NCBI GenBank assembly: GCA_964454305.1
Contig: CAYVXX010000003.1
Location: 74 to 64,073, forward strand
Reading direction: 5' to 3'
DNA: 64,000 nt
Source: an uncultured Syntrophales bacterium
GTDB taxonomy: Bacteria > Desulfobacterota > Syntrophia > Syntrophales > JADFWA01
A program made the position numbers and the translations under genes. Positions 26,051 through 49,069 of this stretch are shown here, piece by piece. How positions within the stretch are numbered: position 1 is the first letter of the stretch; every line of letters starts with the position of its first letter. The notes under the pieces were generated by a model, which was not told the DNA's origin, made no database searches, and saw nothing but the letters and a program-made list of their open reading frames with translations.

Positions 26051-27214
26051 TCAAGCTTGCCCATCGAAGAAGCGGATTGTATTGCGCCCGCCTTCCTTCG
26101 CTTGATACATCGCTATATCGGCCCCCTTGATGATCTCTTCCTGGCTGGCTACATGATTGATAAACAGCACCACGCCGATACTCGATGTGCAATGATGTTC
26201 CACCGTGGTTTCTGCATCCCCTTCATGTTTGCACGTTAATAAATAAGGTTCCGCCAGAACGGTGCGGATTTTTTCGGCGACAACGCCTGCATGCGCAATA
26301 GATAGTTCTTTATTCTCGTCCAACTCGCTGAGCATCACCACGAACTCATCGCCACCAAAACGTGCGACGGTGTCCATTTCACGCACACAACGGGTGATGC
26401 GATGTGCCACTTCGATTAGCAGCAAATCACCCACATCATGTCCGTGCGTATCATTGAGCGGTTTGAAGTTATCCAAATCCAGAAATATCACCGTGCCATA
26501 ACGTCCGCTGCGTTTGCTGGCGGCCATCGCCTGCCCCAGGCGGTCGTTTAGCAGGCGGCGATTGGGAAGTCGTGTCAAGGTGTCATAGAAAGCAAGGTTG
26601 CGAACCTGTTCCTCGGCTTTCTTGCGCTCGGTGATGTCCTCCGTAATGCCAATCAGTTTTTCAACGCTGTCATTACTGTTCATGATGGGAACAAAGCAGG
26701 ATTTCCAAATCTGTCCCCGCGGTCCGCTGGCTATAAATTCGAAGTGGCTGGTTTCCCCGGCATACGCTTTGGCAAGCAATTTCCCTATGCGCTCCCGGTC
26801 GGCAGCGCTGACTCCGTCCAGATATAAAGAGCCTTGTATCTCGCCTTCCCCTTTGAATCCATGCATGAGAATACCTGCCCGGCTCATGGAGATTATCCTG
26901 CCATCCATGTCTATCTCGTGAATGCTCACGGGAGAGTTTTCGAGGAGCAGGCGGTGATTATTTTCTCTTTCACGCAAGGCACGGGTGATCTTCTCGGTTT
27001 CCAGACGAGCCTCCTCCAGTTCCACGGTTCGTTGACGCACCTGATCTTCAAGAGTAACTGCGGTCTGGAACAGGTTGAAGTCCGACCCCAGAATACTTGC
27101 GTTGCGTTCGGCGCGATTCATCAATGACTGAATGATCTTGTTAAGACGTGCGATCTCGGCCTGCAAGGCCTGTTCGTTCGCGCCGGATACCGGCGGCCCC
27201 ACTTGGTCAGGCAT
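26051..27214 (-). CDS. PAS-domain diguanylate cyclase (GGDEF)
   Basis: Coiled-coil, then PAS (NSPVSIHEIDMDGRIISMS), then GGDEF with intact RFGGDEFVV. Start placed at MPDQVG (ATG 27214), which overlaps the upstream stop (GATGCCTGA). Confidence 0.85.
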   Translation of the reverse strand: MPDQVGPPVSGANEQALQAEIARLNKIIQSLMNRAERNASILGSDFNLFQTAVTLEDQVRQRTVELEEARLETEKITRALRERENNHRLLLENSPVSIHEIDMDGRIISMSRAGILMHGFKGEGEIQGSLYLDGVSAADRERIGKLLAKAYAGETSHFEFIASGPRGQIWKSCFVPIMNSNDSVEKLIGITEDITERKKAEEQVRNLAFYDTLTRLPNRRLLNDRLGQAMAASKRSGRYGTVIFLDLDNFKPLNDTHGHDVGDLLLIEVAHRITRCVREMDTVARFGGDEFVVMLSELDENKELSIAHAGVVAEKIRTVLAEPYLLTCKHEGDAETTVEHHCTSSIGVVLFINHVASQEEIIKGADIAMYQAKEGGRNTIRFFDGQA

Positions 27215-28365
27215 CGCGCGGTTCCCTCGTTGATTCTGGGGCAGAGCCGATGGCAATCCCGGTGAGAGTCTGGTTGACATGTACACCGTGGAACTGTTCG
27301 CCGTAGGTGCTAAAACCTACGGTGTTGTTGCGACTAAAAATCTCCCCGACGCGATCTTTCAAACCATTCTGGGAAACTTCCAGATTCCGCAGGATGCAGT
27401 CGCAGCCAATAACGAGTTGGGGCGGCCCGATTTCCTCCCGGATTTTGTCGAAAGTCTGCTCCAGGTTCTCCATCAGATCCACGCCATGCGCCACCCTGAA
27501 CACCACCCCCTCCTCGATGGCGCAAAAGAAAGTCAGGCTGCCATCGGCATTCGCTTTCTGGATAGAACGCACATAGTCCGTGCCATCTATCATCACCACG
27601 ACGGGCGAAGTGGCGAAACGCTGGGGACTGAGCTCATGCATGCCAACACCCACCAGCCGGGCATACTCTCCGGCAGCGGGCAGTCCATTGATCTCCTTGA
27701 CGATGCGTCTGGTGGGATCGGCTTCCGTAACCACCAGACGTTTATCGGTGGGAACAAAATGCTGGGTCTTGAATATCCTGAAAGGCAAGGACGTGCTAAT
27801 CAGAATCAGTACGGCACTATCGGAACGAAAGCGGCCATCGCTATAAACACAGGTTTTGGCAAATTTCAGGTCGTCACCCGCCGAACCGCGGTATCTTGCC
27901 CAACGCATGCTGCAACGCATGCGCCACCGGCTCTTCACGAATGGACAAACCATCAATCAGCAGCAGTGCGAAGCTCTTATCCGGGCTTGCATCCGGGGCT
28001 TTGCTTTCAAGTCGCTGTAACAGGGCTTGGGCAAAATCATTCCCTCTGGCGATTTCGAATTGGCTCAAACGATCCAGCAGTCCACTGACGGCCACGCAAC
28101 TGCCCTTAGGGAAGCTCACTCCGGACAGGCTATGCTGATAATAACCGGCTGGCCCGATTTCCCCGGCCGTGGTGCATCCCACCACTTGAATCCCGGCAAA
28201 CAGGCGGTTAATTTCCGCAGCCAGCGCATCGAGGTCGTATTCGCTGGAGCAAAAGAAGATCACCAGTTCCATGTTCGGCTGCGCCACCGCTGCATGAAAT
28301 TCCTCTGCCACCTGGCGAGCCTCCGTTGCACACGATTGCGCCATGCGAATATTCAGAATGCTCAT
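27207..28365 (-). pseudogene. FIST-domain sensor protein, interrupted by a 1-nt frameshift
   Basis: ORF 27874-28365 (FIST_N-like) ends ...ALGKIPRFGG*. ORF 27207-27956 continues in another frame with ...GSAGDDLKFAKTCVY... (FIST core) and FIST_C. The frames join if one nt in CCGCGG (27886-27891) is removed. Confidence 0.6.
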
Positions 28366-28757: not shown

Positions 28758-29741
28758 TTATAAGATGGGGGCGCTGGAATAAATAGGATCGTCTTCTCCG
28801 AGAATCATGCTCCATTCCAGGGAGGGATTGAAGGCAAGTGAAATGTCCGAGAGACTCGACCTGTTTTTGATGAGGTAGTTACAGGACGATAAAAGGAGGC
28901 AATCGATGACGGCGGTTTCCCCCTTCAGGTACGGGGAAAATTCACGGCTCTTGTGAGCCCCGCCCCGGGTGGCAACCCGGTCCGCGGCCGAAAGACGGGG
29001 AGACTCATCATAGAATATTACATTGTCGGGATATCGATTTTTCGCCCATTCGAGAAATTCAATCTCGTCGGTCGCAATAAAGACCTTGAATCTATCCTGT
29101 TTGTAACGTTTGGAAACGAGACCTATCTGTTCTTCAAAAAGAGCGTATGACGGGCTTTTATACGGATAGAGCAGTTTCTTGTCCGTTCCCCGGTAATGGA
29201 TGCCGATTATAAACTCGCCTGCCATATTAAGTAATCTAAACGTCTCGACTTTCTCCCGTATCGGTTCCTTTACCCTGATATATTTTAAAACAAGCTCCCC
29301 GATGTTTTTCATTTCTCCAGCCGCATTGATGGGGTAGGGGCGGGTTTTCGGATAATCGGGAAGAATGACACTACTCCATGATCTGTTCCACGCCCAGGGA
29401 CCATAACGGTATATCCAACTGTTGAAATGAATTTCCGGAGGCCGTGGAATGTCGTCTCTTAGCGTCATCTTCGGTTCGAAGTAGTATGCCCACCAGTTCT
29501 CTCCCCGTTCGGGGTCTACGTAGATGTCCGTCTGGAAATTTACATACACTCCCGCTGCGCGGTGTTGTTCCGCATAACGGAGCGCGCCGATCACGGCAAA
29601 AAAATCAGCAAAGAGCCCCTGTTTCATGCTGAGCAATCCCCACAGTGTATCCCGCCTGTTGTAAATGACCATGAGCTTTCCCTGTACGCCCGGCTCCGGT
29701 AAGGGGTTGCGGAAAACAGATTTTTTTTTCGGTGATGTCAT
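28758..29741 (-). CDS. putative glycosyltransferase (fucosyltransferase-superfamily-like)
   Basis: 327 aa. HxRxxD-type motif GIHYRGTDK, then FIATDE and VIDCLLLSSCNYLIKNRSSLS, as in GT11/GT23/O-FucT motifs I-III. Same motif pattern as the N-terminal half of 15916-17631. Confidence 0.4.
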   Translation of the reverse strand: MTSPKKKSVFRNPLPEPGVQGKLMVIYNRRDTLWGLLSMKQGLFADFFAVIGALRYAEQHRAAGVYVNFQTDIYVDPERGENWWAYYFEPKMTLRDDIPRPPEIHFNSWIYRYGPWAWNRSWSSVILPDYPKTRPYPINAAGEMKNIGELVLKYIRVKEPIREKVETFRLLNMAGEFIIGIHYRGTDKKLLYPYKSPSYALFEEQIGLVSKRYKQDRFKVFIATDEIEFLEWAKNRYPDNVIFYDESPRLSAADRVATRGGAHKSREFSPYLKGETAVIDCLLLSSCNYLIKNRSSLSDISLAFNPSLEWSMILGEDDPIYSSAPIL

Positions 29742-29794: not shown

Positions 29795-31606
29795 CTATAA
29801 TTTCTCGGAGGCAAGTTCCTCAAGGACACTTATGAGCTTTTCGTTGTCCAGACCGCTTCGAGATGCGATACGCACATAGTTCTTTCCGGAGAGGCCGGTC
29901 TTATTGCTGCAGTCTTTTATCAGGATAGCGTGGTCCATAAAAAGCCGGTCTCTGAGACTTCTGCCGGTGAATGGTTCTGAAACTTTTGCAAAGACATAGT
30001 TTGCCGAAGGCCGGTATGGTTTCAAAAAAGAAATCTTTTCTAATTTCTTGTACAGTTCGTCCCGGTCACGCCTTATGAGGTCACACGACTCCCGATAATC
30101 CTTCTCGAACTTTGGCATTGCTTCAAGAAATTGTTCCGCCAGGGAATTGATGTTCCATATGGGAACCGTGTCCCGAAGCCGTCTGATGATTTGTGGATTT
30201 GAGCAGAGCGCGTATCCGAGCCGTAGGCCGGGAACCCCGAACTCCTTACTAATGCTTCGAACCAGGATGACATTCGGATAACGATCTATTGCCTGGTGTG
30301 CCGAATACTTTTTCTCGGGAGCGACAAAGTCCATGAATGATTCATCGATGATAAGGCAGGCCTTATCCTTCAGTTTTTCGAGGATGAACTCCATCTCTTT
30401 CTCCTCGACAGAGAGGGACGTCGGATTGTTGGGGTTGATTATAAGGGCCGCGTCGGAGCCCGATTGTATCACGGCGTTTACATACCTTTCGGGATCGAGA
30501 CGAAAACCGTCCCTTTCCGTGTCGAAATAATTGATCTGTTCCGGCCTGAGCGTGTTCTCGTACTCGTTGAATGTCGGAATGGGGATTGTTATTTTTTTTA
30601 CAAAATGATTGTTCAGGGCTCTTATAATTTCCGAGGCGCCGTTACCGGCAACCAGCTGGTCGGCCTTGAGCGTAAGCGCCCGGGCAATGAGCTGGGTGAT
30701 TTTAGTCATACCGCTGGGATAGTTCCGGATCAGGAGCGGGAAGGCCGATGTGAGCATGTTCATCAGGGCAGGGGAGGGATAATAGGGGTTGTAGAGATAG
30801 CAAAAATCGAGAAAATCGTACCGCCAGAATCCGCCGTGGAGTTGATCTATCTGTTCCAGTTTCTTCTCTTTTGATGAAAGGTGGTAACTTGCGCGGGCAA
30901 GGTCGGACTCGTCATCGATTTCAAACCACTTGATCCCGTCGACGACGGTACCGTAAATTTCAGGCTTCCCGTAATAGATCAGTGCGCCGAGAATAATCTC
31001 ATAGTATTCGGTGATTGATTGGGTTTTCACGTAGAGATCGAGGTGGGGCACAAAATATCTTTGCAGGAATTCTTTCGAGAAATAGTAAACATTTACGGTC
31101 TTGTATTTATCGGAGAAGTCGAAACCGGGGTGTTGATCGCGCGACGGGATCAGCCGTCGAATGATATTATCCGGCGACATTTCGACGACCGTTCCATCCA
31201 TGTGAGGTTGAAACCTGTCGAGGAGTACCGTGCACGACTCTCTTTCACTCAAAAGCTTATCGATCAGGGTTCCCTCGAAGTAGACATCGCTTTCGAGGAG
31301 GATCGTATCACGGTTCAAATGGTCTTTTGCAAACCAGAGCGAATAGACGTTATTAGTGGTATTGTATTCGAGATTTTCCACATACGATATCCTCATCTTT
31401 CCGAAACGATCGCCGACCGTTTCGTATACCTTTTCCCTCAGGTATCCGACAATCAGAATCGTCTCTTCAATACCGTAACTTTCGAGGATTTCCAGGGTAT
31501 TGACAAGAATTGGCTTGCCGTTTACCTCGACCAGGCACTTTGGAACAAAGTCGGTGAGCGGACGGAGCCGCTTCCCGATTCCGGCGGCAAGGATCACAGC
31601 TTGCAT
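29795..31606 (-). CDS. fusion protein: nucleotidyltransferase (N) + class I/II PLP enzyme of HisC/CobD type (C)
   Basis: N-terminus MQAVILAAGIGKRLRPLTDFVPKCLVEVNGKPIL. C-terminal ~330 aa has PLP-lysine motif VRSISKEFGVPGLRLGYA and NPNNPT. ATG at 31606 preferred over the TTG at 31642. Confidence 0.75.
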   Translation of the reverse strand: MQAVILAAGIGKRLRPLTDFVPKCLVEVNGKPILVNTLEILESYGIEETILIVGYLREKVYETVGDRFGKMRISYVENLEYNTTNNVYSLWFAKDHLNRDTILLESDVYFEGTLIDKLLSERESCTVLLDRFQPHMDGTVVEMSPDNIIRRLIPSRDQHPGFDFSDKYKTVNVYYFSKEFLQRYFVPHLDLYVKTQSITEYYEIILGALIYYGKPEIYGTVVDGIKWFEIDDESDLARASYHLSSKEKKLEQIDQLHGGFWRYDFLDFCYLYNPYYPSPALMNMLTSAFPLLIRNYPSGMTKITQLIARALTLKADQLVAGNGASEIIRALNNHFVKKITIPIPTFNEYENTLRPEQINYFDTERDGFRLDPERYVNAVIQSGSDAALIINPNNPTSLSVEEKEMEFILEKLKDKACLIIDESFMDFVAPEKKYSAHQAIDRYPNVILVRSISKEFGVPGLRLGYALCSNPQIIRRLRDTVPIWNINSLAEQFLEAMPKFEKDYRESCDLIRRDRDELYKKLEKISFLKPYRPSANYVFAKVSEPFTGRSLRDRLFMDHAILIKDCSNKTGLSGKNYVRIASRSGLDNEKLISVLEELASEKL

Positions 31607-31813
31607 GAGAGTTTGCCCTTTCTTTTTAAGATATGTCGTCAATATCCCGCTCAGATGGCTTTGTTTCGCCGGGTGATGCCGGGATATTTTTCGAACTCTT
31701 TCCGGTGCTGAAAGTTTTTACCCGTTATGTAGTTCTTGATATGCCTGGTGATGTATAGTAATCTCCAACATCGAATACCGAATTAAATTTTAACATATCA
31801 TATCTGCTGCCCT

Positions 31814-32875
31814 ATGAAAAGATTAGCGTTTATAGATCATTCCGTTCACCGCAAAACATTATCCTCCCAATTTTTTATCGATTTGTTAGAAAAGACGTTT
31901 GTCGTTGACGTCTTCTGGTGCGATTCATGGAAAACAGGAAAATTCGATCAGTTGGAAAAATTCGATCCCGCCGGATATGATGTGATCGTTTTCTTCCAGG
32001 TGATGTATCCTCTTGATAAGATAAAGGGGTTGAAGGACAAGTGTATTTTTGTGCCCATGTTTGACGGTGCACGCAATGACAGCGACCTTTTCTGGTTCAA
32101 ATACAGGGAGTTCAGGTTTATCAGTTTTTCAGAAACCCTGCATCGCCGGCTGAGAAGGCTGCGGATAAATTCACTCCATGTACGGTACTATCCCGCTTTT
32201 GAGCCGATGGATAGTGATGATTCTGATAGCAATCCTGAAGGTCTCACCGCTTTTTTTTTAGAAAGAACCCCGGAAATATCCTGGAATGTAGTAAAAAGAC
32301 TGGTTGAAGGAAGCGGGATTTCAACCATGTATTATCACAATCCCTTTGCTCGGGAAGAAGGAATGAATATCCCCGATAGAGAAAGTATTTCCCGTTATGG
32401 TATCACCTTTAGCGACTGGTTTGAGTCGAGGGAGGACTATCTTATGCTGGTAAAGTCTGCTCGCATCTATTTCGCGCCGAGGTTGTACGAAGGAATCGGC
32501 ATGACCTTTCTTGAGGCCATGGCGCTGGGCAGGTGTGTTGTTGCGCCGAACCACCCGACGATGAACGAGTATATAACCGATGGCATAAACGGTATTCTAT
32601 ATAATCCCAGATTCCCCAAGCCGATAAATTTTGATAATGTGGGGAAGATTTGCGAAGCGGCAGCCCGGTCTTCGAGAGAAGGTCTGGCCGAATGGCGAGA
32701 TAAGGAAAATGAAATTATCGGATTCATTAACGATGACAAACCGTACACCGATACCGGCACTGCTTATCTTTTTATAAGGAGTCTCCTGACCACGGCCGTC
32801 GTCAGGCCCTGGAGGTCCATGGGCAAACTGTTCGATCGATTCTGGTTTTATCTTATAAGGAAGGGTATCATTTGA
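31814..32875 (+). CDS. glycosyltransferase (GT-B, GT4-like C-terminal domain)
   Basis: C-terminal Glycos_transf_1-type motif EGIGMTFLEAMALGRCVVAPNHPTMNEYITDGINGILY. Confidence 0.7.
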   Translation: MKRLAFIDHSVHRKTLSSQFFIDLLEKTFVVDVFWCDSWKTGKFDQLEKFDPAGYDVIVFFQVMYPLDKIKGLKDKCIFVPMFDGARNDSDLFWFKYREFRFISFSETLHRRLRRLRINSLHVRYYPAFEPMDSDDSDSNPEGLTAFFLERTPEISWNVVKRLVEGSGISTMYYHNPFAREEGMNIPDRESISRYGITFSDWFESREDYLMLVKSARIYFAPRLYEGIGMTFLEAMALGRCVVAPNHPTMNEYITDGINGILYNPRFPKPINFDNVGKICEAAARSSREGLAEWRDKENEIIGFINDDKPYTDTGTAYLFIRSLLTTAVVRPWRSMGKLFDRFWFYLIRKGII

Positions 32876-33984
32876 GAAAAATCCTTTTGACCACACCATA
32901 TGACCTCGCCGTTGAGGGCGGAGTGAACAATCAGTTATGGGGACTGTACCGCTCGCTGAAAAAGGTAGCCGGATACGAGGTACGGGTGATCGGCCCCAGC
33001 TCGGATACTGCCAGCCACGACTGCCCCGACCTGATTGTGATGGGTGCGGTCTTTTCCATGCCCCTGAACAGGGCCATGTCCAACATAACCCCTGATATTC
33101 GAATCCTGTCCCGGGTTAAGGCCCTTCTGAAGGAATTCCGGCCCGATATTGTTCACCTTCAGGAGCCGCTCCTGCCGATATTGAATACCCTCGTTCTTTA
33201 TTACTCTCGTGGTGTTAATGTCGGTACATACCATACCTATTCCGAGACCAGCAGGGGTTATGACTATTGGAGGCCCGTATTGAAATGGCATCATAAGAGG
33301 GTTCACGTGAAGATCGCGGTCTCCGACGCCGCCGGCCGGTTCGTGGCACGGACGTTCCCCGATACCTATCACATCATTCCTAATGCGGTGGAGATGCCCG
33401 CCGCGCTGCCGTCAGATCTAAAACCCGTCCCGTTTGGAAAACGAAAAAAGACAATCCTTTTTGTAGGTCGGATGAATGAACCCCGTAAAGGCTTTTATCA
33501 CCTCCTTGATGCCCACCGATTGCTCGATATGGTTTTCCCGGGAGAATATCGCCTTGTTGTAGCGGGTCCGGGACGGGAAAGCCTGGAGATGGAGGACACA
33601 AAGGGGGAAATAAACTGGCTTGGCAGAATCTCGGAGGAAGAGCTTCGTCAAGCCTATGCCTCCTGCGACATTGTCTGTACCCCTTCACTGGGGGGCGAGA
33701 GCTTCGGTATAACCCTTCTGGAAGCGTTTGCCCACGGTAAACCGGTGGTTGCATCGGATATCGTAGGCTACCGTGAATTTGCCGGAGATTCCGGGGCTGC
33801 ATTGCTCGTTCAGCCGGGCAGTAGCCGGTCTCTGGCGAACGGCATTGTTCAGGTCCTGGGTAATGAAGGGAAATATCTTAAAATGTCGGCTGCTGCCCGG
33901 GCGCTGGCGCAAAGACACGAGTGGTCAACCGTGACAGCGCGTATCATTGCGCTCTACGATTCGGCACTCGCTGAAAGAAAGTGA
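32872..33984 (+). CDS. GT4 glycosyltransferase (PimA-like)
   Basis: GGVNNQLWGL near the N-terminus. GGESFGITLLEAFAHGKPVVASDIVGYREF E-x7-E region. TTG start overlaps the upstream stop (TTGA). Confidence 0.8.
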   Translation: MRKILLTTPYDLAVEGGVNNQLWGLYRSLKKVAGYEVRVIGPSSDTASHDCPDLIVMGAVFSMPLNRAMSNITPDIRILSRVKALLKEFRPDIVHLQEPLLPILNTLVLYYSRGVNVGTYHTYSETSRGYDYWRPVLKWHHKRVHVKIAVSDAAGRFVARTFPDTYHIIPNAVEMPAALPSDLKPVPFGKRKKTILFVGRMNEPRKGFYHLLDAHRLLDMVFPGEYRLVVAGPGRESLEMEDTKGEINWLGRISEEELRQAYASCDIVCTPSLGGESFGITLLEAFAHGKPVVASDIVGYREFAGDSGAALLVQPGSSRSLANGIVQVLGNEGKYLKMSAAARALAQRHEWSTVTARIIALYDSALAERK

Positions 33985-34027: not shown

Positions 34028-34918
34028 GTGAAGACATTGATCCATTGCTGGAGAGAGCTTAAGCCCGTTGACCGTGCGCTGATTTCTTTTTTTCTCGTTC
34101 TTAACGGGTTGATCGTAATTTTTCACGGCAATCTGCCCCGCTGGCCCTGGCACCTAACAAAACACTTTCTTATCTGTTTTCTTATTCTGGTTTTGGTTCC
34201 ACTCATCCAGTCGCGAAAGACCCGATGTGCCCATTTTACCCGCCAGTGGTATCCCGTCGTTTCGATCCCGTTTATCTACTGGAATATGGCGTATTTTATA
34301 CACCTGGTCTTCCCCGGCGAATTCGATCCGCTGATAATTTCAGCGGAAACAGCCATTTTCGGCGTGCTGCCGAATATCCCTGTGCAGAAACTGGTCACGC
34401 CGGTTCTTACGGAAGTTATGCAGGTGTTCTATGCCACATACTGGTTTATGATACCGTCCGGTGCGGCGCTTCTCTATTTCGGCAATCGCGAGGATACATA
34501 TGATTCGTATCTCTATTACATGACGTTGACTTTTTTTGCTTCGTGCCTTGTATTTATTCTGTTTCCCGTTGCCGGCCCCCGATTTTTCATTGTTGACCAG
34601 ATTTTAGCGGAATACCGTGGACTCTTCATAACCGGATTCCTTCGCCGGTTCGTGGAGGATGCAGGCCTGCGGGGATGTGCATTTCCAAGCGCACACGTTG
34701 CCGTTGCCGTGGTAGTCATGAGCTTTGTCCGGATTGAGTACCCCCGGCTTGCCGGACGGGTCTTCCTGCCCCTTGTCGTGGGGCTTTCACTTGCAACGAT
34801 CTACGGGCAATACCATTATCTGACCGATGTAGCGGCGGGACTTGCTTTGGGTGTTGTCGTCAGCATGATCGGGGTAAGGAATGTACGGAAGATGTTACAA
34901 AGAGATGAAAAAGGGTGA
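34028..34918 (+). CDS. PAP2-superfamily polytopic membrane protein, sphingomyelin/IPC-synthase-like
   Basis: Multiple TM helices. PAP2 C2 motif FPSAHVAV and C3 motif YGQYHYLTDVAAGLALG (H-Y-x-x-D-V as in SMS/AUR1-type phosphosphingolipid synthases). GTG start. Confidence 0.6.
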   Translation: MKTLIHCWRELKPVDRALISFFLVLNGLIVIFHGNLPRWPWHLTKHFLICFLILVLVPLIQSRKTRCAHFTRQWYPVVSIPFIYWNMAYFIHLVFPGEFDPLIISAETAIFGVLPNIPVQKLVTPVLTEVMQVFYATYWFMIPSGAALLYFGNREDTYDSYLYYMTLTFFASCLVFILFPVAGPRFFIVDQILAEYRGLFITGFLRRFVEDAGLRGCAFPSAHVAVAVVVMSFVRIEYPRLAGRVFLPLVVGLSLATIYGQYHYLTDVAAGLALGVVVSMIGVRNVRKMLQRDEKG

Positions 34919-34929
34919 TTGATGTAGAT

Positions 34930-36069
34930 TCAGAAGAGCTCGGCAGGATCCGCTTTCATGACCTTTCTTACGGCCAGACCGCCGGCAAAGCCGCACATCA
35001 ATACGGTCAGAATACATATAAGGGCGATTCGTCCTGCCGTTAGAAACATATTGATCCTGGTGAAATGTTCTATAGTTGTATACAGAATCCATCCTCCTAA
35101 TAAGCCGGGGAAAAACCCGAGCAGAGAGAGCACGAGAGCAATTTTCATAACGATACTTATCACATAGAGGTTTGGAAACCCGATAGCTTTCAGGGTGGCG
35201 TATTGCGGCAAGTTGTCGGTTACTTCGTTAAAGAGGATTTGATAACAGATCATTACCCCGATGACGAATCCGATGACAAGGCCTGTTCCGAAGATAATTC
35301 CGAAAGGAGTTGCTTTGGTGAAGAAACGGACGTCGCGTTCTCTCAGTTCTCCCGGAGTCATGGCAATTATTTCTTCCGGATTCAGGGAGACTATTCGGGC
35401 CTTTAAATCTTTCAGATCAACGCCGGGTTTCACACGAATCAAGCCGAAAGAAATCTGATCGGATCTTGATGATGTATGAGTCAACCAGTTCGTATCACTC
35501 ATGATGATATAGCCGTTTCTGGCAAAGTTAGGCCCTAATTTGATAACTCCGCCTACCTTGTAAATACTGTCGGAGAGCTCAATGTCCATACCTTCCCTGA
35601 TATTTCCGTAAACCGATCGTGATCGGGAGTCATAGAGGACGGCATTTTTCTTCTTCAATATATCCTGATATAGCTTAAGCTCCGGTATGGTGAAGGGAGG
35701 GGTGCCGATGGGGAAGGCAATTATTGCGATTCGATGGACCATATCTGTTTCAGGGTTTCGGAGACGCAGATTACCTTCGTAAACAGGGATAACCTCCGTC
35801 ACCCCGTCAAAGGGAGCGACCTGGTAGAGATATGCCCGATTTATTCTATTGGATTTCATCATATTGACTTTGCTCTTGTGCATCATGACGAGATCCGCGT
35901 TATACAGGGGCGGCAAGTTGGCCTGACTGTCATTGAACCCGTTAAAAAACCCCAGTTCCAGAAACATGGTAATCACCGAAAAGGCAATCCCGGCTAACGA
36001 AAGTGCGAGTCGCCGCCTGTCGTGAGTCAGTATCTTCCATTCAATATGTATTTTTTTTACCTTTTCCAT
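34930..36069 (-). CDS. devC: DevC-family ABC exporter permease (FtsX/MacB-type), paralogue 2
   Basis: N-terminus ...RRLALSLAGIAFSVITMFLELGFFNGF, large periplasmic domain, C-terminal FtsX 4-TM region ending KADPAELF. Confidence 0.85.
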   Translation of the reverse strand: MEKVKKIHIEWKILTHDRRRLALSLAGIAFSVITMFLELGFFNGFNDSQANLPPLYNADLVMMHKSKVNMMKSNRINRAYLYQVAPFDGVTEVIPVYEGNLRLRNPETDMVHRIAIIAFPIGTPPFTIPELKLYQDILKKKNAVLYDSRSRSVYGNIREGMDIELSDSIYKVGGVIKLGPNFARNGYIIMSDTNWLTHTSSRSDQISFGLIRVKPGVDLKDLKARIVSLNPEEIIAMTPGELRERDVRFFTKATPFGIIFGTGLVIGFVIGVMICYQILFNEVTDNLPQYATLKAIGFPNLYVISIVMKIALVLSLLGFFPGLLGGWILYTTIEHFTRINMFLTAGRIALICILTVLMCGFAGGLAVRKVMKADPAELF

Positions 36070-36073
36070 ACGC

Positions 36074-37201
36074 TTAAAATAGCTCGGCAGGATCCGCCTT
36101 CCTTACTTTTTGGAGTGCCAGAAAACCCGGGATAATACACATCAGAAGGGTTATGAAGAAAACGAAACCCGCCAATCCGAGGGTAAACTCTGCCGGGAGT
36201 TTTGCCTTTATACGAAGAAAATGAAAAAGGCCGATAGTAATCGCCAATGCCGGCATGTATCCCATAAAGGCAAACAGAAAGGCCTGCGTGAATCCTATAT
36301 TATATATATTTTTGGTGGTAAAACCCATGGCCTTCAACGTCGCATACTCGTTCAGTTTGTTGGTAATTTCTGTGACCAGTACCTGAAACAGAATGACGGA
36401 ACCGATGATGAAAGCGATAATCACGCCCACCTGAAACATTATGCCGACCGGGAGGACGTAGATGAAATAATCCTGCTCATTGGTGATCAGTTTCTGTCGA
36501 TCAAAGATCAGCACGTCATCCGGAAGATTTTCCTTCAAATTCCTTTTAATCGTGGTAATGTCTGCCCCCGGCGCCACCCTGATCAAGCCGAAATTTACCA
36601 TTCTTGCGTCGCGACGGACAAGGCTTTGGAAAGTTTGATTGTTCACAAATACAGCGCCGTCATTATAGAAACGCATTCCCATGGTGAACAGAGATGTGAC
36701 GGTAATATCCACATCGTTGATTCTGGCCTCGCTATTTTTTTTCAGCGGACCGTATTCCTCGGTCGAGAGGGTATCAAGCATGACAGTCCTTGTTTTGGTG
36801 ATGGTATCGAGATTCGACTTTACCCCCGTATTGCGAATGAATGATGGGTTCGGGTCAATTCCTATGAGTATTACTCCCGAGGTAATCTCAGTTTCCGGAT
36901 TTTTCCATTCTCCTTCCCCGATATTTAGGGGCATGACGTCTTTTACGCCGGGGACGACCATGGCCTGAATTAAGCGGGCCTTGTCAAAGCTTCCGCTTGA
37001 TGTGAGAAATTCATATCTGTCAGAGGTCATGATCAGATCAAAGTCGAGATATTGATAGAGGAGTGTTGAGCCCCGTTTGCCTGTTTCAAGAAATCCCACT
37101 TGCATGAAAATCAGAAGGACGGAGAACGCAATCCCGGCTACGGCGGAAAAGGTTCGTTTCTTATTGTGGAAGGTATTGTTCCAGGCGTAAGGTACCCGCA
37201 T
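36074..37201 (-). CDS. devC: DevC-family ABC exporter permease (FtsX/MacB-type), paralogue 1
   Basis: N-terminus MRVPYAWNNTFHNKKRTFSAVAGIAFSVLLIFMQVGFLETG. Same architecture; also ends KADPAELF. 4-nt gap to paralogue 2. Confidence 0.85.
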   Translation of the reverse strand: MRVPYAWNNTFHNKKRTFSAVAGIAFSVLLIFMQVGFLETGKRGSTLLYQYLDFDLIMTSDRYEFLTSSGSFDKARLIQAMVVPGVKDVMPLNIGEGEWKNPETEITSGVILIGIDPNPSFIRNTGVKSNLDTITKTRTVMLDTLSTEEYGPLKKNSEARINDVDITVTSLFTMGMRFYNDGAVFVNNQTFQSLVRRDARMVNFGLIRVAPGADITTIKRNLKENLPDDVLIFDRQKLITNEQDYFIYVLPVGIMFQVGVIIAFIIGSVILFQVLVTEITNKLNEYATLKAMGFTTKNIYNIGFTQAFLFAFMGYMPALAITIGLFHFLRIKAKLPAEFTLGLAGFVFFITLLMCIIPGFLALQKVRKADPAELF

Positions 37202-37248: not shown

Positions 37249-38349
37249 TTATAAAATGCCATCCCCGCTTTTTATCAAAGAGGGGCGCTTTATTATGTTT
37301 TTACGGAGATCCAGAAAGATAACAATACCTCCCAGAAAAGCCGCTAAAATGGTGGTAGAAAATCGCAACAGGATCGCGAATAATATCAGAATGTCCTGTG
37401 GTATTATATGTCCCAGAAGCCATACGGAAGAAACCTCTTCGATTCCTGACGCGCCGGGTGTCGGGGCAAAATAGTTCAGAAAATAGATTATGATCTGCAA
37501 TCCGATAATTGAACCGAGAGGGACATCCGGCAGGAATACCCGGGCAATTACGTAACCTATCAGAAATTTATTACAGAAAAGGACCGGCGTGATTATAAAG
37601 GTTGCGGCGATGACCGCTTTCTTTTCCTTCCGGAGACGGGCAAAGTCTTCCGTAAATCGGTGTGTACCCTTCTGCAAGAGCCCTAAGGAGAGGTCTTTTA
37701 ATCTTTCCAGCCCGCCAAAACTAAAGGGGATCAGTCTGAAAACGAATTTAACCGAGTTCTCTGCTATCGAAGGAAACAGGAGGATAGAAAAAAGCGCGGC
37801 AGAGAGCACTCCAAAGACAATAAACCCTCCGCGAATCAACTTTTCCATCTGGCTTCCAAAGAGACCTTCAGGGAAAACGTAAAGAACAGTAATACTGGCA
37901 ATTAAAAAAAAGAACAAAGTTGCAATAAAGGTTATTACGGAAACGAGCATACTCTGGGATATTTTCACCCCGCATCTCCAGAGGATATAGAGCTGTGCCG
38001 GACCGCCTCCTGTCCTGAAGGGGGTTACCGCTCCCATAAAACAGTTTGCCCAGTTTGAACGCATGCAGTTCCAAAGCGAGACACAGGGCAATATGGTCCC
38101 GTCAAAAAACAGCCGGAAACGAATGCCGCCGAGTATATAATCGACCACGACTAAAGGTATTACCAGTCCCACAAATGCCCAGTTTAGATTGTATTCCAGG
38201 ACCCGGGAATGGTCGGGTGTTTTCCACCAGAGAGCGATTCCAACCCCGACGACGGTAAATATGATGAACCACTGCATGCCCCGGAAAAGGATTTTACGTG
38301 AAGGTAACAAATCAGTTGTAAGAGAGTTATTCTGCATAACGACGAACAT
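37249..38349 (-). CDS. UPF0104 / lysyl-PG-synthase-TM-like (flippase-like) membrane protein
   Basis: 366 aa, about 8 TM helices. Family-typical motif FLNYFAPTPGASGIEE near the C-terminus. Confidence 0.55.
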   Translation of the reverse strand: MFVVMQNNSLTTDLLPSRKILFRGMQWFIIFTVVGVGIALWWKTPDHSRVLEYNLNWAFVGLVIPLVVVDYILGGIRFRLFFDGTILPCVSLWNCMRSNWANCFMGAVTPFRTGGGPAQLYILWRCGVKISQSMLVSVITFIATLFFFLIASITVLYVFPEGLFGSQMEKLIRGGFIVFGVLSAALFSILLFPSIAENSVKFVFRLIPFSFGGLERLKDLSLGLLQKGTHRFTEDFARLRKEKKAVIAATFIITPVLFCNKFLIGYVIARVFLPDVPLGSIIGLQIIIYFLNYFAPTPGASGIEEVSSVWLLGHIIPQDILILFAILLRFSTTILAAFLGGIVIFLDLRKNIIKRPSLIKSGDGIL

Positions 38350-38400: not shown

Positions 38401-39774
38401 CTATGAGACCTTATCCCCCCATAAATCGTACATTCTGCCTATCGCCTGTTCATCCGTTGCGACTCCCATGGGAATATATATAACATGGTCCTTCCCAGCC
38501 AGCTTATTCCGGAGGATCCGCCAGCAGTCAAATACAACAACCGGAGGATCTTTTGTGGGAAAATTTTCGGATCGCAATGCCCTGAATGCAGGATCCGGTG
38601 TGGTGATGATGACCACGTGGGCCTGGTTGAGACAGGATTCTACGTCGTCGAGAACGAGGGCCTTGTCACGAAAAATCTCTCTTGCTTCCGTTTTGGCCTG
38701 AGGGTCGTAGCTTATCACTCTTACCCCGGCGCTTGCGAGAGCCTTGGCTAAATAAATTCCCTGTGACTCTTCGACCACGTGGGAATGGGGTTTATATGCA
38801 AGGCCAAGCACGGCAACCGTTATTCCCGGCCTGAGGTAAGGTTTCAGACGGTCCACGATCTTATCAACGAGTTCACGGTTCATTCTGTCCGTCGTTTCGG
38901 CAAGCTCTGCCTTCACCCCAACTGCGTCTGAAAAGACCGTAAGGGCGACATTGTCCCTCGGAAAACAGGGGCCTCCATATCCTAACGCACCCTTAAGAAA
39001 TTTCGCCCCGATACGCATGTCCGTACCGATAGCATCGGTTACGATATCCACGTCGCCTCCCGGTATCTTCTCGCACAGTTCGACCAGCATGTTGGCATAG
39101 GTGATTTTAGTGGTAATGAACGTATTAAGCGCGATCTTTGTGAGTTCGGCATTTTCGATGCTCATCCGCTTGCAGGGGGGGCTGTTTTCCATGATCCGGG
39201 AATAGCAGGATTCGAGTTGACTGCCTGCCCGTTCGTCGAACTCACCGACAAGAGTAAAATCGGGGTTCAGGAAATCTTGAATAATACTGCCAAGGGCGAT
39301 GAACTCCGGGCTGTAACAGAGACCGAAATTCGAACCACAGGATTTGCCCGACTCCTTCTCCAGGATCGGCAGCAAGCCGTAACGCGTTGAACCAGGCAGA
39401 ACCGTACTCGTCAAAACCACATTATGGTATTCGTTTTTTGAGGCCAGTGCGCGGCCGATTTCTTTAAATGCCCATGCCGCATACTGGAGCGAGAAGACTC
39501 CGTTTCGGTCACTCGGGGTGGGGACGATAACAAAGGAGAGGTCTGTGTTGAGAATGGCATCCGTAGTATCCAGGGTGGCCCTGATCCTCTCTTTGTTAGC
39601 TTCAATCGTTTTCTGAAGATCAGTTTCTTTGACCGGTGCAATCCCACTGTTCACCTTGGCCACAACCTCCGGAATGATGTCAACTCCGACGACCTGAAAA
39701 CCTCTTTTGGCAATGGCTGCAGCCATGCTGCAGCCCAGTTTACCGAGCCCTATAATGGAATATCTGGTACTCAC
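38401..39774 (-). CDS. nucleotide-sugar 6-dehydrogenase (UDP-glucose/GDP-mannose dehydrogenase family)
   Basis: N-terminal Rossmann YSIIGLGKLGCSMAAAIA and catalytic-Cys motif YGGPCFPRD. 457 aa. Substrate not assignable. Confidence 0.85.
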   Translation of the reverse strand: MSTRYSIIGLGKLGCSMAAAIAKRGFQVVGVDIIPEVVAKVNSGIAPVKETDLQKTIEANKERIRATLDTTDAILNTDLSFVIVPTPSDRNGVFSLQYAAWAFKEIGRALASKNEYHNVVLTSTVLPGSTRYGLLPILEKESGKSCGSNFGLCYSPEFIALGSIIQDFLNPDFTLVGEFDERAGSQLESCYSRIMENSPPCKRMSIENAELTKIALNTFITTKITYANMLVELCEKIPGGDVDIVTDAIGTDMRIGAKFLKGALGYGGPCFPRDNVALTVFSDAVGVKAELAETTDRMNRELVDKIVDRLKPYLRPGITVAVLGLAYKPHSHVVEESQGIYLAKALASAGVRVISYDPQAKTEAREIFRDKALVLDDVESCLNQAHVVIITTPDPAFRALRSENFPTKDPPVVVFDCWRILRNKLAGKDHVIYIPMGVATDEQAIGRMYDLWGDKVS

Positions 39775-40050: not shown

Positions 40051-41028
40051 TCATGCCGTCTGATAGTTCTTGACCTGTGAATCGATCCAGCGGTATGTTT
40101 TTTCCAATCCAGCCCTCAGCGGCTGAGATGGTTTCCAGCCCAATTTTTCCTGAATAAGCCTGTTGTCCGAATTTCTGCCTCGAACGCCTAACGGTCCCTC
40201 GATGTGTCTAACGGTCAGGTCTTTTCCCGCAATGTCCGTGACCGTTTCTACCAAATGACCAATACTTACCATTTCCTCAGAGCCTATATTCACCGGACCC
40301 GTCCAATCAGATCGCATGAGCCGTGTGATTCCCTCCAGACATTCGTCGATATAGAGGAATGATCTTGTCTGTTTGCCGTCTCCCCAGATCTCTATTTCTC
40401 CCCCATCATTCGCTTCGGCAACTTTTCGGCAAATGGCGGCCGGGGCTTTTTCTCTTCCCCCGTTCCAGACGCCCTCGGGTCCAAATATGTTATGAAAACG
40501 GGCGATGCTCACATGCATTCCGTAATTTCTATGAAATGCAAGATACAGGCGCTCGCTGAACAGCTTCTCCCATCCATACTCACTATCGGGGTGCGCCGGA
40601 TAGACGCTGTCTTCCGAACAGATTGGATTCTCCGGGTCCATCTGATTGTATTGGGGATAGATACATGCCGATGAAGAGTAGAAAATTCGCCCGGTATTTT
40701 CATTTAAACATGCTTCAAGCATATTTAAATTAATCAGGGCCGAATTGTGCATGACATCAGCGTCATTTTCGCCTGTGAAGATGTATCCGGCTCCTCCCAT
40801 GTCGGCAGCCAGCTGGTAGACTTCATCAAACTGTGTGTCAAACAGAGACCTGCAAACCCGTGGATCACGCAAATCTCCCAATAGAAAGTCATCTGCTTCT
40901 GTAGGAGAGAATTCGGGATATTTAAGATCAACACCTCTGACCCAGAATCCTTCATTTTTTAATCTTTTGATCAAATGACTTCCTATGAACCCTCCCGCTC
41001 CGCAGACAAGGGCTCTCTTCTTTGACAT
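40051..41028 (-). CDS. NAD-dependent sugar-nucleotide epimerase, GDP-mannose 3,5-epimerase-like
   Basis: VCGAGGFIGSHL. YQLAADMGGAGYIFTGENDADVMHNSALINLNMLEA closely resembles the AADMGGMGFI...N..MI.FNM.EA block I recall from GME enzymes. Confidence 0.7.
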   Translation of the reverse strand: MSKKRALVCGAGGFIGSHLIKRLKNEGFWVRGVDLKYPEFSPTEADDFLLGDLRDPRVCRSLFDTQFDEVYQLAADMGGAGYIFTGENDADVMHNSALINLNMLEACLNENTGRIFYSSSACIYPQYNQMDPENPICSEDSVYPAHPDSEYGWEKLFSERLYLAFHRNYGMHVSIARFHNIFGPEGVWNGGREKAPAAICRKVAEANDGGEIEIWGDGKQTRSFLYIDECLEGITRLMRSDWTGPVNIGSEEMVSIGHLVETVTDIAGKDLTVRHIEGPLGVRGRNSDNRLIQEKLGWKPSQPLRAGLEKTYRWIDSQVKNYQTA

Positions 41029-41137: not shown

Positions 41138-42307
41138 TTATTTGCTGAAATACACCTTTTTCAACTGTTCATCCAAGGTGGGACTCGCTTCAACAATTTC
41201 AGTGAATAGTTCCCTGGAAAGGGTAAGAAGTTCCACTTCTTCTATCGCTCTGACCGTAGCGGCGCGCGGTTCCTTTCTTAAGAGAGCGAGTTCCCCGAAG
41301 AAATCGCCGGGGCCAAGTTCGATAAGAAACTCCTCCTTGCCATCCGTTTCCTTAATAACTTTCACACGACCCGTCCGTATGATGTAAAATTTCTCTCCTT
41401 CATCGCCCTGCCTTATAATGACGGTTCCCGCAGGGTGGGTTTCCTGGAGCAGCTTGTTTGCAATATCGGCAAGCAGAGTCGGGTTGGAATCTTTAAAGAT
41501 AGGACACTTTATGAGAAATGTTGCTATTGTCAGAGATTCGGCGACGTCAATATCGGAGTCCACATATCCATCTACCATCCTGACGATACGGTCTGCCACA
41601 TCGAGAATTCGATTGTCATGAGTAACGATAAGGACCGTGCAGTCCTCTGACTTTGCCATTTTTTTGAGGATATTTACAACGAGCCTTCCCGTATTCTTGT
41701 CGAGAGCTGCCGTTGGTTCGTCGGCAAGAATCAGTTTGGGACGGTTTACGAGGGCCCTCCCGATGGCTACCCTCTGTCGCTGTCCGCCCGAAAGTTTTTG
41801 CGGTTTTTTAGAGAGGTGTTCCCCAAGCTCCAGCTCCTTCAAAATCTCTTCAGAGAAGTTTTGGGCATCTTCATTTGTATAGTCAGAAAGCTCAGTGGCA
41901 AGTTTTACATTCTGATATGTGGTCAATGCCTCGAAAAGGTTGTGGGCTTGAAATATAAAGCCTATGTTACGGCGGATCTTAGCTTGTTCCAGAGAACTCA
42001 GCCCATAGAGTTCATTTCCGAAGATTTTCAGACTGCCCTCTTGAACTGCCCGCAAAGCACCGATAAGCGTCAACAGAGTCGTCTTCCCCGAACCGGATGG
42101 ACCTGTCATTATGACAATTTCTCCGGGATACATGGTCAGGTTGTTGTCGAAAAGAACCTGGATTTTATTTTCACCATCGCCGTATGAATAGTTGATATTT
42201 TTTATTTCTATCGAGGGTGCTGCCTTTTTTTTGGTGGAAAAGGTGTGACCGGCCTCTATAGTTTCACGGATTTTTTCTGTGATAGGGTTAAATTCCTGCT
42301 CGGTCAT
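41138..42307 (-). CDS. devA: DevA-family ABC exporter ATPase fused to a C-terminal cyclic-nucleotide-binding domain
   Basis: Walker A GPSGSGKTT, GFIFQAHNL, signature LSGGQRQR, Walker B LILADEPT. The C-terminal ~125 aa (about 41138-41515) carry the CAP/cNMP motif FFGELALLRKEPRAATVRA. Confidence 0.85.
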   Translation of the reverse strand: MTEQEFNPITEKIRETIEAGHTFSTKKKAAPSIEIKNINYSYGDGENKIQVLFDNNLTMYPGEIVIMTGPSGSGKTTLLTLIGALRAVQEGSLKIFGNELYGLSSLEQAKIRRNIGFIFQAHNLFEALTTYQNVKLATELSDYTNEDAQNFSEEILKELELGEHLSKKPQKLSGGQRQRVAIGRALVNRPKLILADEPTAALDKNTGRLVVNILKKMAKSEDCTVLIVTHDNRILDVADRIVRMVDGYVDSDIDVAESLTIATFLIKCPIFKDSNPTLLADIANKLLQETHPAGTVIIRQGDEGEKFYIIRTGRVKVIKETDGKEEFLIELGPGDFFGELALLRKEPRAATVRAIEEVELLTLSRELFTEIVEASPTLDEQLKKVYFSK

Positions 42308-42403: not shown

Positions 42404-43285
42404 TTATAAATTGATGGAGACATTAACTTCCATATTAATCAATTTGTCTGCTACTTCGGAGTGATTAAGGCGAATCTTGACTTTGGCAACTTTCGATTTT
42501 TCGGAAATTACTCTGCCGATGGATTCGATCTGTCCTGTTAATGCTTTGGGCAGAGAATTGCTGGTAATCGTAACACTCTGACCGAGCGACAGTTTCAGGA
42601 GGTCACTCTCGAAAATATCTGCAATTACATATATCTGCCTGAGATCCGCCATCGTTATGATTGTTCCGCTTCCGGTACTTTCCCCAACGTTCTGAAGGAT
42701 CTCGATTATGGTTCCATCACATGGTGCTTTGATGACCGCATTTTGCAATTTTTCTCTGGCTACGTGTAGTTGGTCAATTGCTCTCTTTACCTTGATATCG
42801 CGATCCAATACGAGGCGCTGCAGTTCCTGACCTGCCAGGTCAAGATTGAGTTGAGCAGTCTTTACATGGCTTTCACGGAGCTGTGTCTCCTGTTTGGAAA
42901 CCGAGTCACCACCAATTCTTTCAAATCTGCTGAGTCTTTTTGAGGCTAATTCGTGATCCTCTTTTGCAACCTTCACCTTCAGTTTTTGAATCGCAATGGC
43001 CTTCTTGCCCAGCTTATCTGCCTCCTCTACTGCCAGTTCGGCCAATGCGACTTCAAGCGACTGAGTGGCTTTGCTGCGTAAAATGACGAGCTGTGTCCCT
43101 TTTTCAACAAAATCGCCCTCTTTAACCATAATGTCAGCGATGATATCTCCGGATTGTCCTACCAGATTAACGATACCGCCGGCCGGCTTAATGCGGCCTA
43201 ACGCGCCTACTTTTTCTCCGGCCATGAGTTCCGAATTAACTGCAAACATAGCCAGAACAAGAATGACAACTAATTTCTTTTTCAT
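42404..43285 (-). CDS. devB: DevB-family membrane fusion (HlyD-like) protein
   Basis: Signal/anchor, then GALGRIKPAGGIVNL ... VKEGDFVEKGTQLVIL, a coiled-coil hairpin and a beta-barrel domain. Confidence 0.85.
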   Translation of the reverse strand: MKKKLVVILVLAMFAVNSELMAGEKVGALGRIKPAGGIVNLVGQSGDIIADIMVKEGDFVEKGTQLVILRSKATQSLEVALAELAVEEADKLGKKAIAIQKLKVKVAKEDHELASKRLSRFERIGGDSVSKQETQLRESHVKTAQLNLDLAGQELQRLVLDRDIKVKRAIDQLHVAREKLQNAVIKAPCDGTIIEILQNVGESTGSGTIITMADLRQIYVIADIFESDLLKLSLGQSVTITSNSLPKALTGQIESIGRVISEKSKVAKVKIRLNHSEVADKLINMEVNVSINL

Positions 43286-45473: not shown

Positions 45474-45731
45474 ATGAAAGAGGCGGCAAAAGAAGACATT
45501 CTAACAGATTTGAAGCTTATAGCCGTGAAAGAATTAGAACTTGCTCCGGAAGAGCTTTCCCGGCTTCAGCCTGATTCTCCCATAATAGAAACTCTCAACC
45601 TCGATTCCCTTGCCCAGACGGCGTTTATATTCGCGATTGAAGATCATTATGGAATTGCATTTGAGCTGGAAGATACGGCAAAAATAGAAACCTTACAGGA
45701 TATAATTAATCTAATCAAAAAAAAGATATAG
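45474..45731 (+). CDS. stand-alone acyl carrier protein
   Basis: 85 aa, four-helix ACP pattern with attachment motif LNLDSLAQTAFIFAIE. Confidence 0.8.
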   Translation: MKEAAKEDILTDLKLIAVKELELAPEELSRLQPDSPIIETLNLDSLAQTAFIFAIEDHYGIAFELEDTAKIETLQDIINLIKKKI

Positions 45732-49035: not shown

Positions 49036-49069
49036 CTGTCAAGGTACAGCTTAAACAGGGGGAATAACC

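Follow-up and report, generated by a model that had tools for sequence, protein, structure and literature searches.

An Aur1-like PAP2_3 membrane protein of an uncultured Syntrophales bacterium as a candidate phospho-head-group transferase for sphingolipid-type lipids

Inositol phosphorylceramide (IPC) synthase of Saccharomyces cerevisiae has Aur1 as its catalytic subunit, an enzyme with a lumenal active site in which H255, H294 and D298 are all indispensable for IPC synthesis (PMC13133130). In bacteria, Spt, bCerS and CerR make up the known ceramide pathway, and their genes are often clustered (PMC11334938). The Aur1 homologue BT_1522 of Bacteroides thetaiotaomicron has been proven by knockout to be a phosphatidylinositol (PI)-dihydroceramide synthase (PMC9246714). 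In the literature searched, BT_1522 in Bacteroides and a kinase-based route in Caulobacter were the only head-group genes described for bacterial ceramides, and no bacterial ceramide-phosphoethanolamine synthase, no PAP2 gene in spt operons and no PimA together with a bacterial IPC was found. Neither the PAP2_3 family treated here nor a pairing of PimA-like and Aur1-like genes was described in it, an absence that does not prove novelty. Here we analyse a PAP2_3 membrane protein encoded at 34028-34918 (+) of a 64,000-nucleotide stretch of DNA, hereafter the window, from an uncultured Syntrophales bacterium (GenBank assembly GCA_964454305.1, contig CAYVXX010000003.1). Judged from sequence and gene context, the protein is probably a phospho-head-group transferase acting on a sphingolipid, and there is about an even chance that the head group it moves is inositol-based.

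The gene is an open reading frame (ORF) of 296 codons that starts with GTG and has a Shine-Dalgarno-like box (GAGG) 5 nt 5' of this start, and at least six public metagenome contigs carry a called gene for an identical protein. An earlier interpretation of the DNA letters, referred to here as the sequence-only reading, had described a polytopic 296-residue PAP2 protein with motif C2 as FPSAH and motif C3 as H-Y-[TS]-x-D-V. The ORF and the eight long helices of an AlphaFold2 model agree with the first description, and FPSAH is indeed found at residues 219-223 (nt 34682-34696). The third motif lies within GQYHYLTDVAAG (residues 260-271, nt 34805-34840), where the C3 segment YHYLTDV holds H263 and D267. 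H-Y-x-x-D-V is therefore present, but its third position is Leu instead of Thr or Ser; the counterpart in Aur1 is H-Y-F-V-D-L. The codons of the catalytic triad are 34694-34696 for H223, 34814-34816 for H263 and 34826-34828 for D267, all on the plus strand. The surroundings of the gene had also been described correctly, with two GT4 glycosyltransferase genes directly before it, the nearer of which (32872-33984) ends 43 nt upstream, and a convergent FtsX/MacB-type (DevC-like) gene (34930-36069, -) that terminates 11 nt past its end.

The protein carries the marks of the PAP2 superfamily (C2 His, C3 H-x3-D and a multi-helix core) and belongs to Pfam PAP2_3, the Aur1/Ipt1 domain family in Pfam/InterPro naming. 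It scores 66 bits against PAP2_3 (PF14378, cut-off 27 bits) and 43.6 bits against the generic PAP2 model (cut-off 27.2 bits). In Pfam it has no match to PAP2_C at E<=10, and it is not a member of the PAP2_C/sphingomyelin synthase (SMS) group. No curated NCBIfam family is assigned to it. A single-sequence phmmer search of the PDB gave no match, and Aur1 was reached only with a family profile built from 31 homologues; with this profile hmmsearch placed yeast Aur1 best (E 5.8e-5, profile positions 21-284), PgpB and LpxE being aligned in the same search through their C-terminal ~70 residues only. The AlphaFold2 run on the 31-sequence alignment (mean pLDDT 95.7, pTM 0.92) gave an eight-helix membrane protein for which Foldseek returned Aur1 first (9vj4_A, E 8.2e-6, TM 0.60/0.62, 283 columns) and second (9ivc_A, E 9e-6), the Aur1 structures together giving TM 0.56-0.62 over 283-295 columns. 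After them came phosphatases, covered in part, with E>=7e-3; the SMS-related enzyme SMSr was seventh (E 0.07, TM 0.42). The likeness to Aur1 thus extends over the full length of the protein. The assignment holds across the family as well, with PAP2_3 matched by all 38 diverse members sampled, weaker matches to the head-group transferase models PAP2_C/SMS (21 of 38) and AtPDCT1_2 (5 of 38), and the PI-dihydroceramide synthase model NF052609 as the only or best NCBIfam match in 16 of the 38. These results uphold the earlier proposal of a transferase rather than a phosphatase: PAP2_3 outscores PAP2, Aur1 is the best solved relative by profile and by fold and ranks well ahead of SMSr in the structural comparison, and the placement among phosphatases that would have spoken for the opposite was not found. 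An identity as an undecaprenyl-pyrophosphate or lipid A phosphatase was considered and rejected on the grounds of scores far under cut-off (14.5 bits against the LpxE model, cut-off 177, the cut-offs of these phosphatase models being 177 or more), partial alignment and the absence of the basic residues discussed next.

In the HMM alignment, H223, H263 and D267 stand opposite H255, H294 and D298 of Aur1, and P220, S221, H223, H263, D267 and G271 are invariant among 88 bacterial homologues and yeast Aur1. Such conservation, in a family of the size given below, goes far past what chance would produce. In hydrolases of the PgpB and LpxE type, a basic C1 Lys/Arg and the C3 Arg hold the phosphomonoester. 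The corresponding signatures, K-x6-R-P in C1 and S-R-x5-H in C3, are not present family-wide; the position of the hydrolase C3 'SR' Arg is T257 here (Thr in 91% of sequences) and likewise T288 in Aur1, and no conserved Lys/Arg column exists on the active-site side across the 88 bacterial homologues. On the loops of the model, 14 Lys and Arg residues lie on the N-terminus, the loops 60-69, 149-157 and 235-242 and the C-terminus, and 7 on the loops that bear the catalytic residues. Because of this distribution, the positive-inside rule predicts that both termini are cytoplasmic and that the active site is periplasmic. To our knowledge, the PAP2 enzymes characterised so far have their active site on the extracytoplasmic face.

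These features bear on the possibility that the protein is a lipid phosphate hydrolase, most plausibly the missing phosphatase that turns phosphatidylinositol phosphate (PIP) into PI for the PimA-like enzyme encoded next door, or else a ceramide-1-phosphate or long-chain-base-phosphate phosphatase. The PAP2 superfamily consists mostly of hydrolases, the generic PAP2 score is itself above cut-off, the gene is co-operonic with a PimA-like gene whose product needs PI, and the PIP synthase gene of the window has no PgpA-type or HAD-type phosphatase beside it. Nevertheless, a hydrolase is quite improbable in view of the family-wide loss of the basic C1 and C3 residues and of the full-length match to a transferase by both sequence and fold. 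Moreover, a periplasmic active site would release PI on the wrong face of the membrane for PimA, and the gene neighbourhoods of the family, described below, include operons of serine palmitoyltransferase (SPT) genes that hold no PIP to hydrolyse, as well as an acidobacterial arrangement in which the phosphatase role is already filled.

The family is large. At E<=1e-30 its profile matches the representatives of 1198 clusters (50% identity), and it also matches more than 570 loci in a set of species-representative genomes, the nearest homologues in the genome collection being 47-48% identical (Caldithrix/Calditrichota metagenome-assembled genomes, MAGs). ORFs were called in 82 non-redundant loci and compared with the window proteins and among themselves; loci and contigs are numbered here with the prefix L. 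In 16 loci outside the window lineage, from Gemmatimonadota, KSB1, Bacteroidota, Latescibacterota and unclassified MAGs, the genes follow one another on the same strand in the order SPT, GNAT acyltransferase, epimerase, PAP2_3, with PAP2_3 last; these loci were counted on the presence of SPT and/or GNAT upstream on the PAP2_3 strand, the epimerase-family gene usually abutting PAP2_3. They represent half of the 32 clade-II loci that have at least 3.2 kb of upstream sequence. The first gene of these operons encodes an SPT-like alpha-oxoamine synthase (507 bits to the NCBIfam serine palmitoyltransferase), and the GNAT protein (~375 aa) is homologous to the GNAT encoded at 4701-5840 of the window (225-294 bits). 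The operon GNAT would correspond to bCerS and the epimerase to CerR, and with these assignments the 16 loci bring the PAP2_3 family together with SPT, a ceramide synthase of the GNAT type and an NAD-dependent reductase. In a Bacteroidota MAG (L032:5032-10858), a single operon of GNAT, PAP2_3, epimerase and PAP2_3 contains two paralogues that score 42 and 27 bits to the PI-dihydroceramide synthase model, and two different head groups may arise from this one locus.

A different arrangement is found in 29 loci of Acidobacteriota (L018-L021, L028, L033-L036 and others; e.g. L036:8300-10876 and L028:1028-3415), where genes for a CDP-alcohol phosphatidyltransferase and an HAD-IB phosphatase precede PAP2_3 on the same strand and no SPT gene is nearby. 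The type of this CDP-alcohol enzyme is ambiguous, with equally weak scores as PgsA and as inositol-phosphate synthase. The trio resembles BT_1523, BT_1525 and BT_1522 in its logic and differs from them in the family of the phosphatase (PMC9246714).

The neighbourhoods also bear on the acceptor. The protein could move a phospho-head group from a phospholipid onto a glycosylated lipid or a surface glycan in the periplasm, in the manner of Ipt1. Yeast Ipt1 acts on mannosylated IPC, and LpxT acts on lipid A. Such a role would suit the naming of PAP2_3 after Aur1 and Ipt1, the surroundings of the window-clade gene, where glycosyltransferase, flippase-like and exporter genes are found, and the members of Calditrichia and Acidobacteriota that have no sphingolipid genes nearby. 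However, the operons of SPT, GNAT, epimerase and PAP2_3 contain no glycosyltransferase, which makes ceramide the simplest acceptor there, and the solved structure nearest to the model is ceramide-bound Aur1. We regard a non-ceramide acceptor as very unlikely.

In the window itself, genes expected for the synthesis of a ceramide-like acceptor are grouped upstream. A GNAT acyltransferase, the candidate bacterial ceramide synthase (4701-5840, +), is followed by a protein of 3008 aa (5981-15007, +) that joins a type I polyketide synthase (PKS; KS-AT-DH-cMT-ER-KR-ACP) to a C-terminal SPT-like alpha-oxoamine synthase, and directly after it by a short-chain dehydrogenase/reductase (SDR) that is a candidate 3-keto reductase (15056-15838, +). 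The best PDB match of the C-terminal domain is the SPT of Sphingobacterium (254 bits), and the PKS-SPT fusion would make a sphingoid-type base. The order GNAT-PKS-SDR is kept in relatives whose GNATs are 62-67% identical to that of the window, and PKS-derived sphingolipids of the phosphoglycerol type have a precedent in Pseudomonas (PMC12134224). At 10.5 kb downstream of the PAP2_3 gene lie a stand-alone acyl carrier protein (ACP) with an LDSL motif (45474-45731, +) and a fatty acyl-AMP ligase (FAAL; 45761-47548, +); two metagenome contigs, L095 (190-3670) and L100, carry a PAP2_3 homologue 43-45% identical to that of the window and, directly after it, ACP and FAAL, the latter 62-67% identical to its window counterpart. 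Three independent gene arrangements thus tie the PAP2_3 family to the synthesis of sphingolipid-type lipids. The family-wide synteny with SPT, GNAT and epimerase genes supports the role in sphingolipid synthesis suggested by the sequence-only reading, which had placed the head group on the PKS-derived base; an N-acylated, ceramide-like acceptor is likelier than the free base.

The evidence on the head group comes from the genes that accompany PAP2_3 in the window and its close relatives. The GT4 gene immediately upstream (32872-33984, +) encodes a PimA-like protein that matches mycobacterial PimA over its full length (170 bits, E 5e-49, residues 4-364). PimA is the GDP-mannose:phosphatidylinositol mannosyltransferase and works in the cytoplasm. 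The next solved GT4 enzyme, MshA, scores 51 bits and is also inositol-directed. The PimA-like/PAP2_3 pair is kept in every contig of the window clade (L088-L092, 65-89% identity), as are the DevC, DevC and flippase-like genes convergent with PAP2_3; a scan of metagenomes added only two short contigs of this clade. The second GT4 gene (31814-32875, +) is generic and absent in the 65-89% relatives. Further downstream, the window encodes a myo-inositol-1-phosphate synthase (MIPS; 53662-54774, -; 433 bits to TIGR03450) and, at 55049-55675 (-), a CDP-alcohol phosphatidyltransferase of the (archaetidyl/phosphatidyl)inositol-phosphate synthase type by NCBIfam (160.6 bits to the archaetidylinositol-phosphate synthase model NF040950, 117 to PIPSynth and 116 to PIPSynBT1523). 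In L091, a 65% relative, MIPS and PIP synthase stand directly after the exporter module, 8 kb from PAP2_3. Among the three head groups that had been offered earlier for this enzyme, phosphoinositol is the one that the PimA-like partner, MIPS and PIP synthase clearly favour. Shortly before the GNAT-PKS module, a phytase of the beta-propeller type (239 bits) adjoins a multihaem cytochrome (1422-4198, -), an arrangement kept in several contigs of the same organism; the nearness of this inositol-phosphate hydrolase to genes for inositol lipids may be either fortuitous or meaningful.

The same chemistry on a ceramide-like acceptor could deliver another head group, such as phosphoethanolamine, phosphoglycerol or aminoethylphosphonate (AEP) taken from phosphatidylethanolamine, phosphatidylglycerol or a phosphono-glycerolipid, giving ceramide phosphoethanolamine-, ceramide phosphoglycerol- or ceramide AEP-type lipids; in that case the inositol genes and the PimA-like enzyme would belong to a PI-mannoside branch of their own. 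Clade-II operons have no MIPS or PIP synthase nearby, which implies other donors somewhere in the family, the residues D100, D/E107 and E129, conserved on the active-site side among the 88 bacterial homologues, could suit an amine head group through their acidic side chains, and the Pseudomonas lipids just cited are of the phosphoglycerol type. The cluster also holds a full AEP pathway, with a PEP mutase-nucleotidyltransferase fusion (21973-23709, +), a split phosphonopyruvate decarboxylase (23713-24764, +) and an aminotransferase (24761-25831, +), preceded by Stealth (19507-20460, +), LicD (20569-21270, -) and nucleotidyltransferase (21318-22064, +) genes. Against another head group stand the conserved PimA homologue with its 43-nt spacing and the MIPS and PIP synthase genes of the window and L091, all of which favour inositol, and the fact that the window encodes a single CDP-alcohol transferase, one of the inositol-phosphate type. 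The set of PEP mutase-nucleotidyltransferase, LicD and Stealth presumably fits a nucleotide-activated decoration of glycans, and it is syntenic in L088, where the decarboxylase and the AEP aminotransferase are not visible. Overall, a head group other than inositol is an unlikely alternative. That PAP2_3 installs AEP, one of the three options of the sequence-only reading, was rejected: no enzyme for the synthesis of an AEP-glycerolipid donor was found, and the AEP genes look like a CMP-AEP/LicD route to glycan decoration rather than a source of donor for a PAP2 enzyme.

The observed fold, triad, loss of hydrolase-type basic residues and synteny lead us to favour, on balance, an Aur1-like lipid phosphotransferase that moves (glycosyl)phospho-inositol from a PI-type lipid to a ceramide-like lipid at the periplasmic face; its activity as a transferase, ceramide as its acceptor, inositol as the head group and the sequence of the steps are inferred. 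By analogy with the mechanism of Aur1 (PMC13133130), H263, activated by D267, would attack the phosphodiester of the glycerophospholipid donor, diacylglycerol would leave, and a phospho-histidine intermediate would bear the head group until H223 activates the C1 hydroxyl of the ceramide-like acceptor that receives it. The enzymes that build the acceptor would be the GNAT, SDR and PKS-SPT fusion of the cluster, with the ACP and the acyl-AMP ligase priming its synthesis. Most likely the donor would be PI made by way of the MIPS and PIP synthase of the window, either bare or mannosylated at the cytoplasmic face by the PimA-like enzyme and then flipped by the flippase-like protein (37249-38349). 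This would yield a (glycosyl)inositol-phospho-ceramide-like lipid, which the convergent DevCBA/TolC-type exporter would then take over. An extended and rather unlikely form of this scheme is that of an 'anchor swapper', in which a phosphonate-decorated mannosyl-inositol-phosphate is built on diacylglycerol in the cytoplasm by the PimA-like and other transferases, flipped to the periplasmic leaflet by the neighbouring flippase-like protein, and moved en bloc by PAP2_3 to the PKS-made ceramide, so that a product like the glycosyl-inositol-phospho-ceramides is exported to the outer membrane through DevCBA/TolC; more generally, the PAP2_3 family, encoded fourth in the spt-cerS-cerR operons of several phyla that have been little studied, would supply their missing synthase of phosphosphingolipids.

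Several observations weigh against an Aur1-type transfer of phospho-inositol to ceramide. At the level of the protein, identity to Aur1 is only ~19%, and NF052609, the equivalog model of BT_1522, has no match to the window protein at E<=0.1 and scores 22 bits with a 65% relative, 17-42 bits in the family and 77 bits with yeast Aur1, for a cut-off of 480; the window protein is not an equivalog of BT_1522. R185 (in a GPR motif) hardly varies within the window clade, could bind phosphate and to that extent favours a hydrolase. At the level of the locus, the PKS and GNAT genes lie 19-29 kb from the PAP2_3 gene, PAP2_3 and PKS were seen on one contig in the window organism alone, MIPS and PIP synthase are 19 kb away, and no PIP phosphatase of PgpA or HAD type is evident beside the latter. 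Elsewhere in the family, the remaining 16 of the 32 clade-II loci with adequate flanks have neither SPT nor GNAT, and seven loci of the Calditrichia/KSB1 clade, the sister of the window clade in a neighbour-joining tree, have a GAF-SpoIIE gene directly upstream and no lipid genes nearby. Outside the window clade, the neighbourhoods of family members yielded no MIPS; therefore donors need not match across the family, and they probably differ between clades. Finally, the order 'IPC first, then mannose' is topologically awkward because the predicted active site is periplasmic and PimA-type enzymes are cytoplasmic. Two other orders would fit better: either mannosyl-PI is made, flipped and moved to ceramide, or the PimA-like enzyme and PAP2_3 act in parallel, each giving a PI-derived lipid of its own. 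The conserved pairing of GAF-SpoIIE (a PP2C-type phosphatase) with PAP2_3 is seen in L001, L003 and L008-L012 at about 8000-10000.

The genes convergent with PAP2_3 are consistent with the export of a lipid. Two DevC-like MacB/FtsX permeases (34930-36069 and 36074-37201, both -) would form a lipid exporter, and the flippase-like membrane protein behind them (37249-38349, -; LPG_synthase_TM/TIGR00374) is a candidate flippase for the head-group-modified lipid. An ABC ATPase with a C-terminal domain binding cyclic nucleotide monophosphates (41138-42307, -), an HlyD-type adaptor (42404-43285, -) and an outer-membrane factor (43322-44896, -) would complete a tripartite exporter with the DevC-like permeases. 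Between the two groups, a nucleotide-sugar dehydrogenase (38401-39774, -) and an NAD-dependent epimerase (40051-41028, -) may supply sugar donors. The cyclic-nucleotide-binding domain of the exporter ATPase is conserved in relatives (L089, L091), and inside the cluster a GGDEF-PAS protein (26051-27286) and FIST-domain ORFs (27207-28365) are encoded, a combination that suggests second-messenger control of lipid export.

A NodZ/FUT8-like glycosyltransferase (28758-29741, -) is followed by a fusion (29795-31642, -) of a sugar-phosphate-type nucleotidyltransferase with a CobD-like threonine-phosphate decarboxylase (189 bits to TIGR01140), the two parts of which are separate genes beside PEP mutase in L088; the fusion may lead to an amino-alcohol phosphate activated with CDP. 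At 47611-51631 (+), flanked by the lipid exporter and the inositol genes, an outer-membrane protein like Slam (surface lipoprotein assembly modulator) precedes a protein of 853 aa that combines a FecR domain with a C-terminal beta-barrel lobe of the TbpB type, and the pair resembles Slam with a surface-lipoprotein substrate.

Among the known systems, Aur1 (PDB 9vj3, 9vj4 and 9ivc) is the closest in its catalytic apparatus. Both proteins have the same H-H-D triad, P-S-x-H and H-Y-x-x-D motifs, a common F-P-x-A-x-P motif and an extracytoplasmic active site, which is predicted for the window protein, and in both the C3 Arg is replaced by Thr. The latter differs from Aur1 in being bacterial, in its length of 296 aa without the long cytosolic tail, and in having Y262 for H293 and R185 for W204; its acceptor would be a PKS-derived ceramide-like lipid and its donor may be a mannosylated PI. 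Kei1 is the obligate regulatory subunit of the fungal Aur1 complex, whereas none is expected for the bacterial protein; no neighbouring gene is annotated as Kei1, although no search aimed at Kei1 homologues was made. In the cluster of BT_1522, MIPS, PIP synthase and PIP phosphatase genes are adjacent, while in the window MIPS and PIP synthase stand well apart from PAP2_3 and no phosphatase was identified; in terms of NF052609 scores, the window family is farther from BT_1522 than yeast Aur1 is. SMS and SMSr (PAP2_C; PDB 8ijq) are also PAP2-fold transferases of phospho-head groups to ceramide with a C3 motif of the H-Y-x-x-D-V type, and a different catalytic strategy has been proposed for SMSr (PMC13133130). 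With PgpB, LpxE, LpxT and undecaprenyl-pyrophosphate phosphatases the protein has in common the core of C2 and C3 His and Asp and a periplasm-facing active site. The mycobacterial PI-mannoside pathway has a PimA homologue, MIPS and PIP synthase in common with the window, but it uses no PAP2_3, PKS-SPT or DevCBA exporter, and the inositol head group of the window is predicted to sit on a sphingolipid. The significance of the comparison is twofold. A family of at least 1198 clusters (50% identity), uncharacterised and often last in operons of SPT, GNAT and reductase, is a testable candidate for the missing head-group step, and, in the window lineage, the combination of PimA-like and inositol genes, PKS-SPT, an AEP pathway and a MacB-type exporter predicts a bacterial counterpart of the glycosyl-inositol-phospho-ceramides of plants and fungi. 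If true, this would extend what is known of the chemistry of bacterial outer membranes and would show the Aur1-type reaction to be widespread beyond eukaryotes and Bacteroides. The protein of the window is an enzyme of a known kind, and the lipid pathway around it is unusual and probably new.

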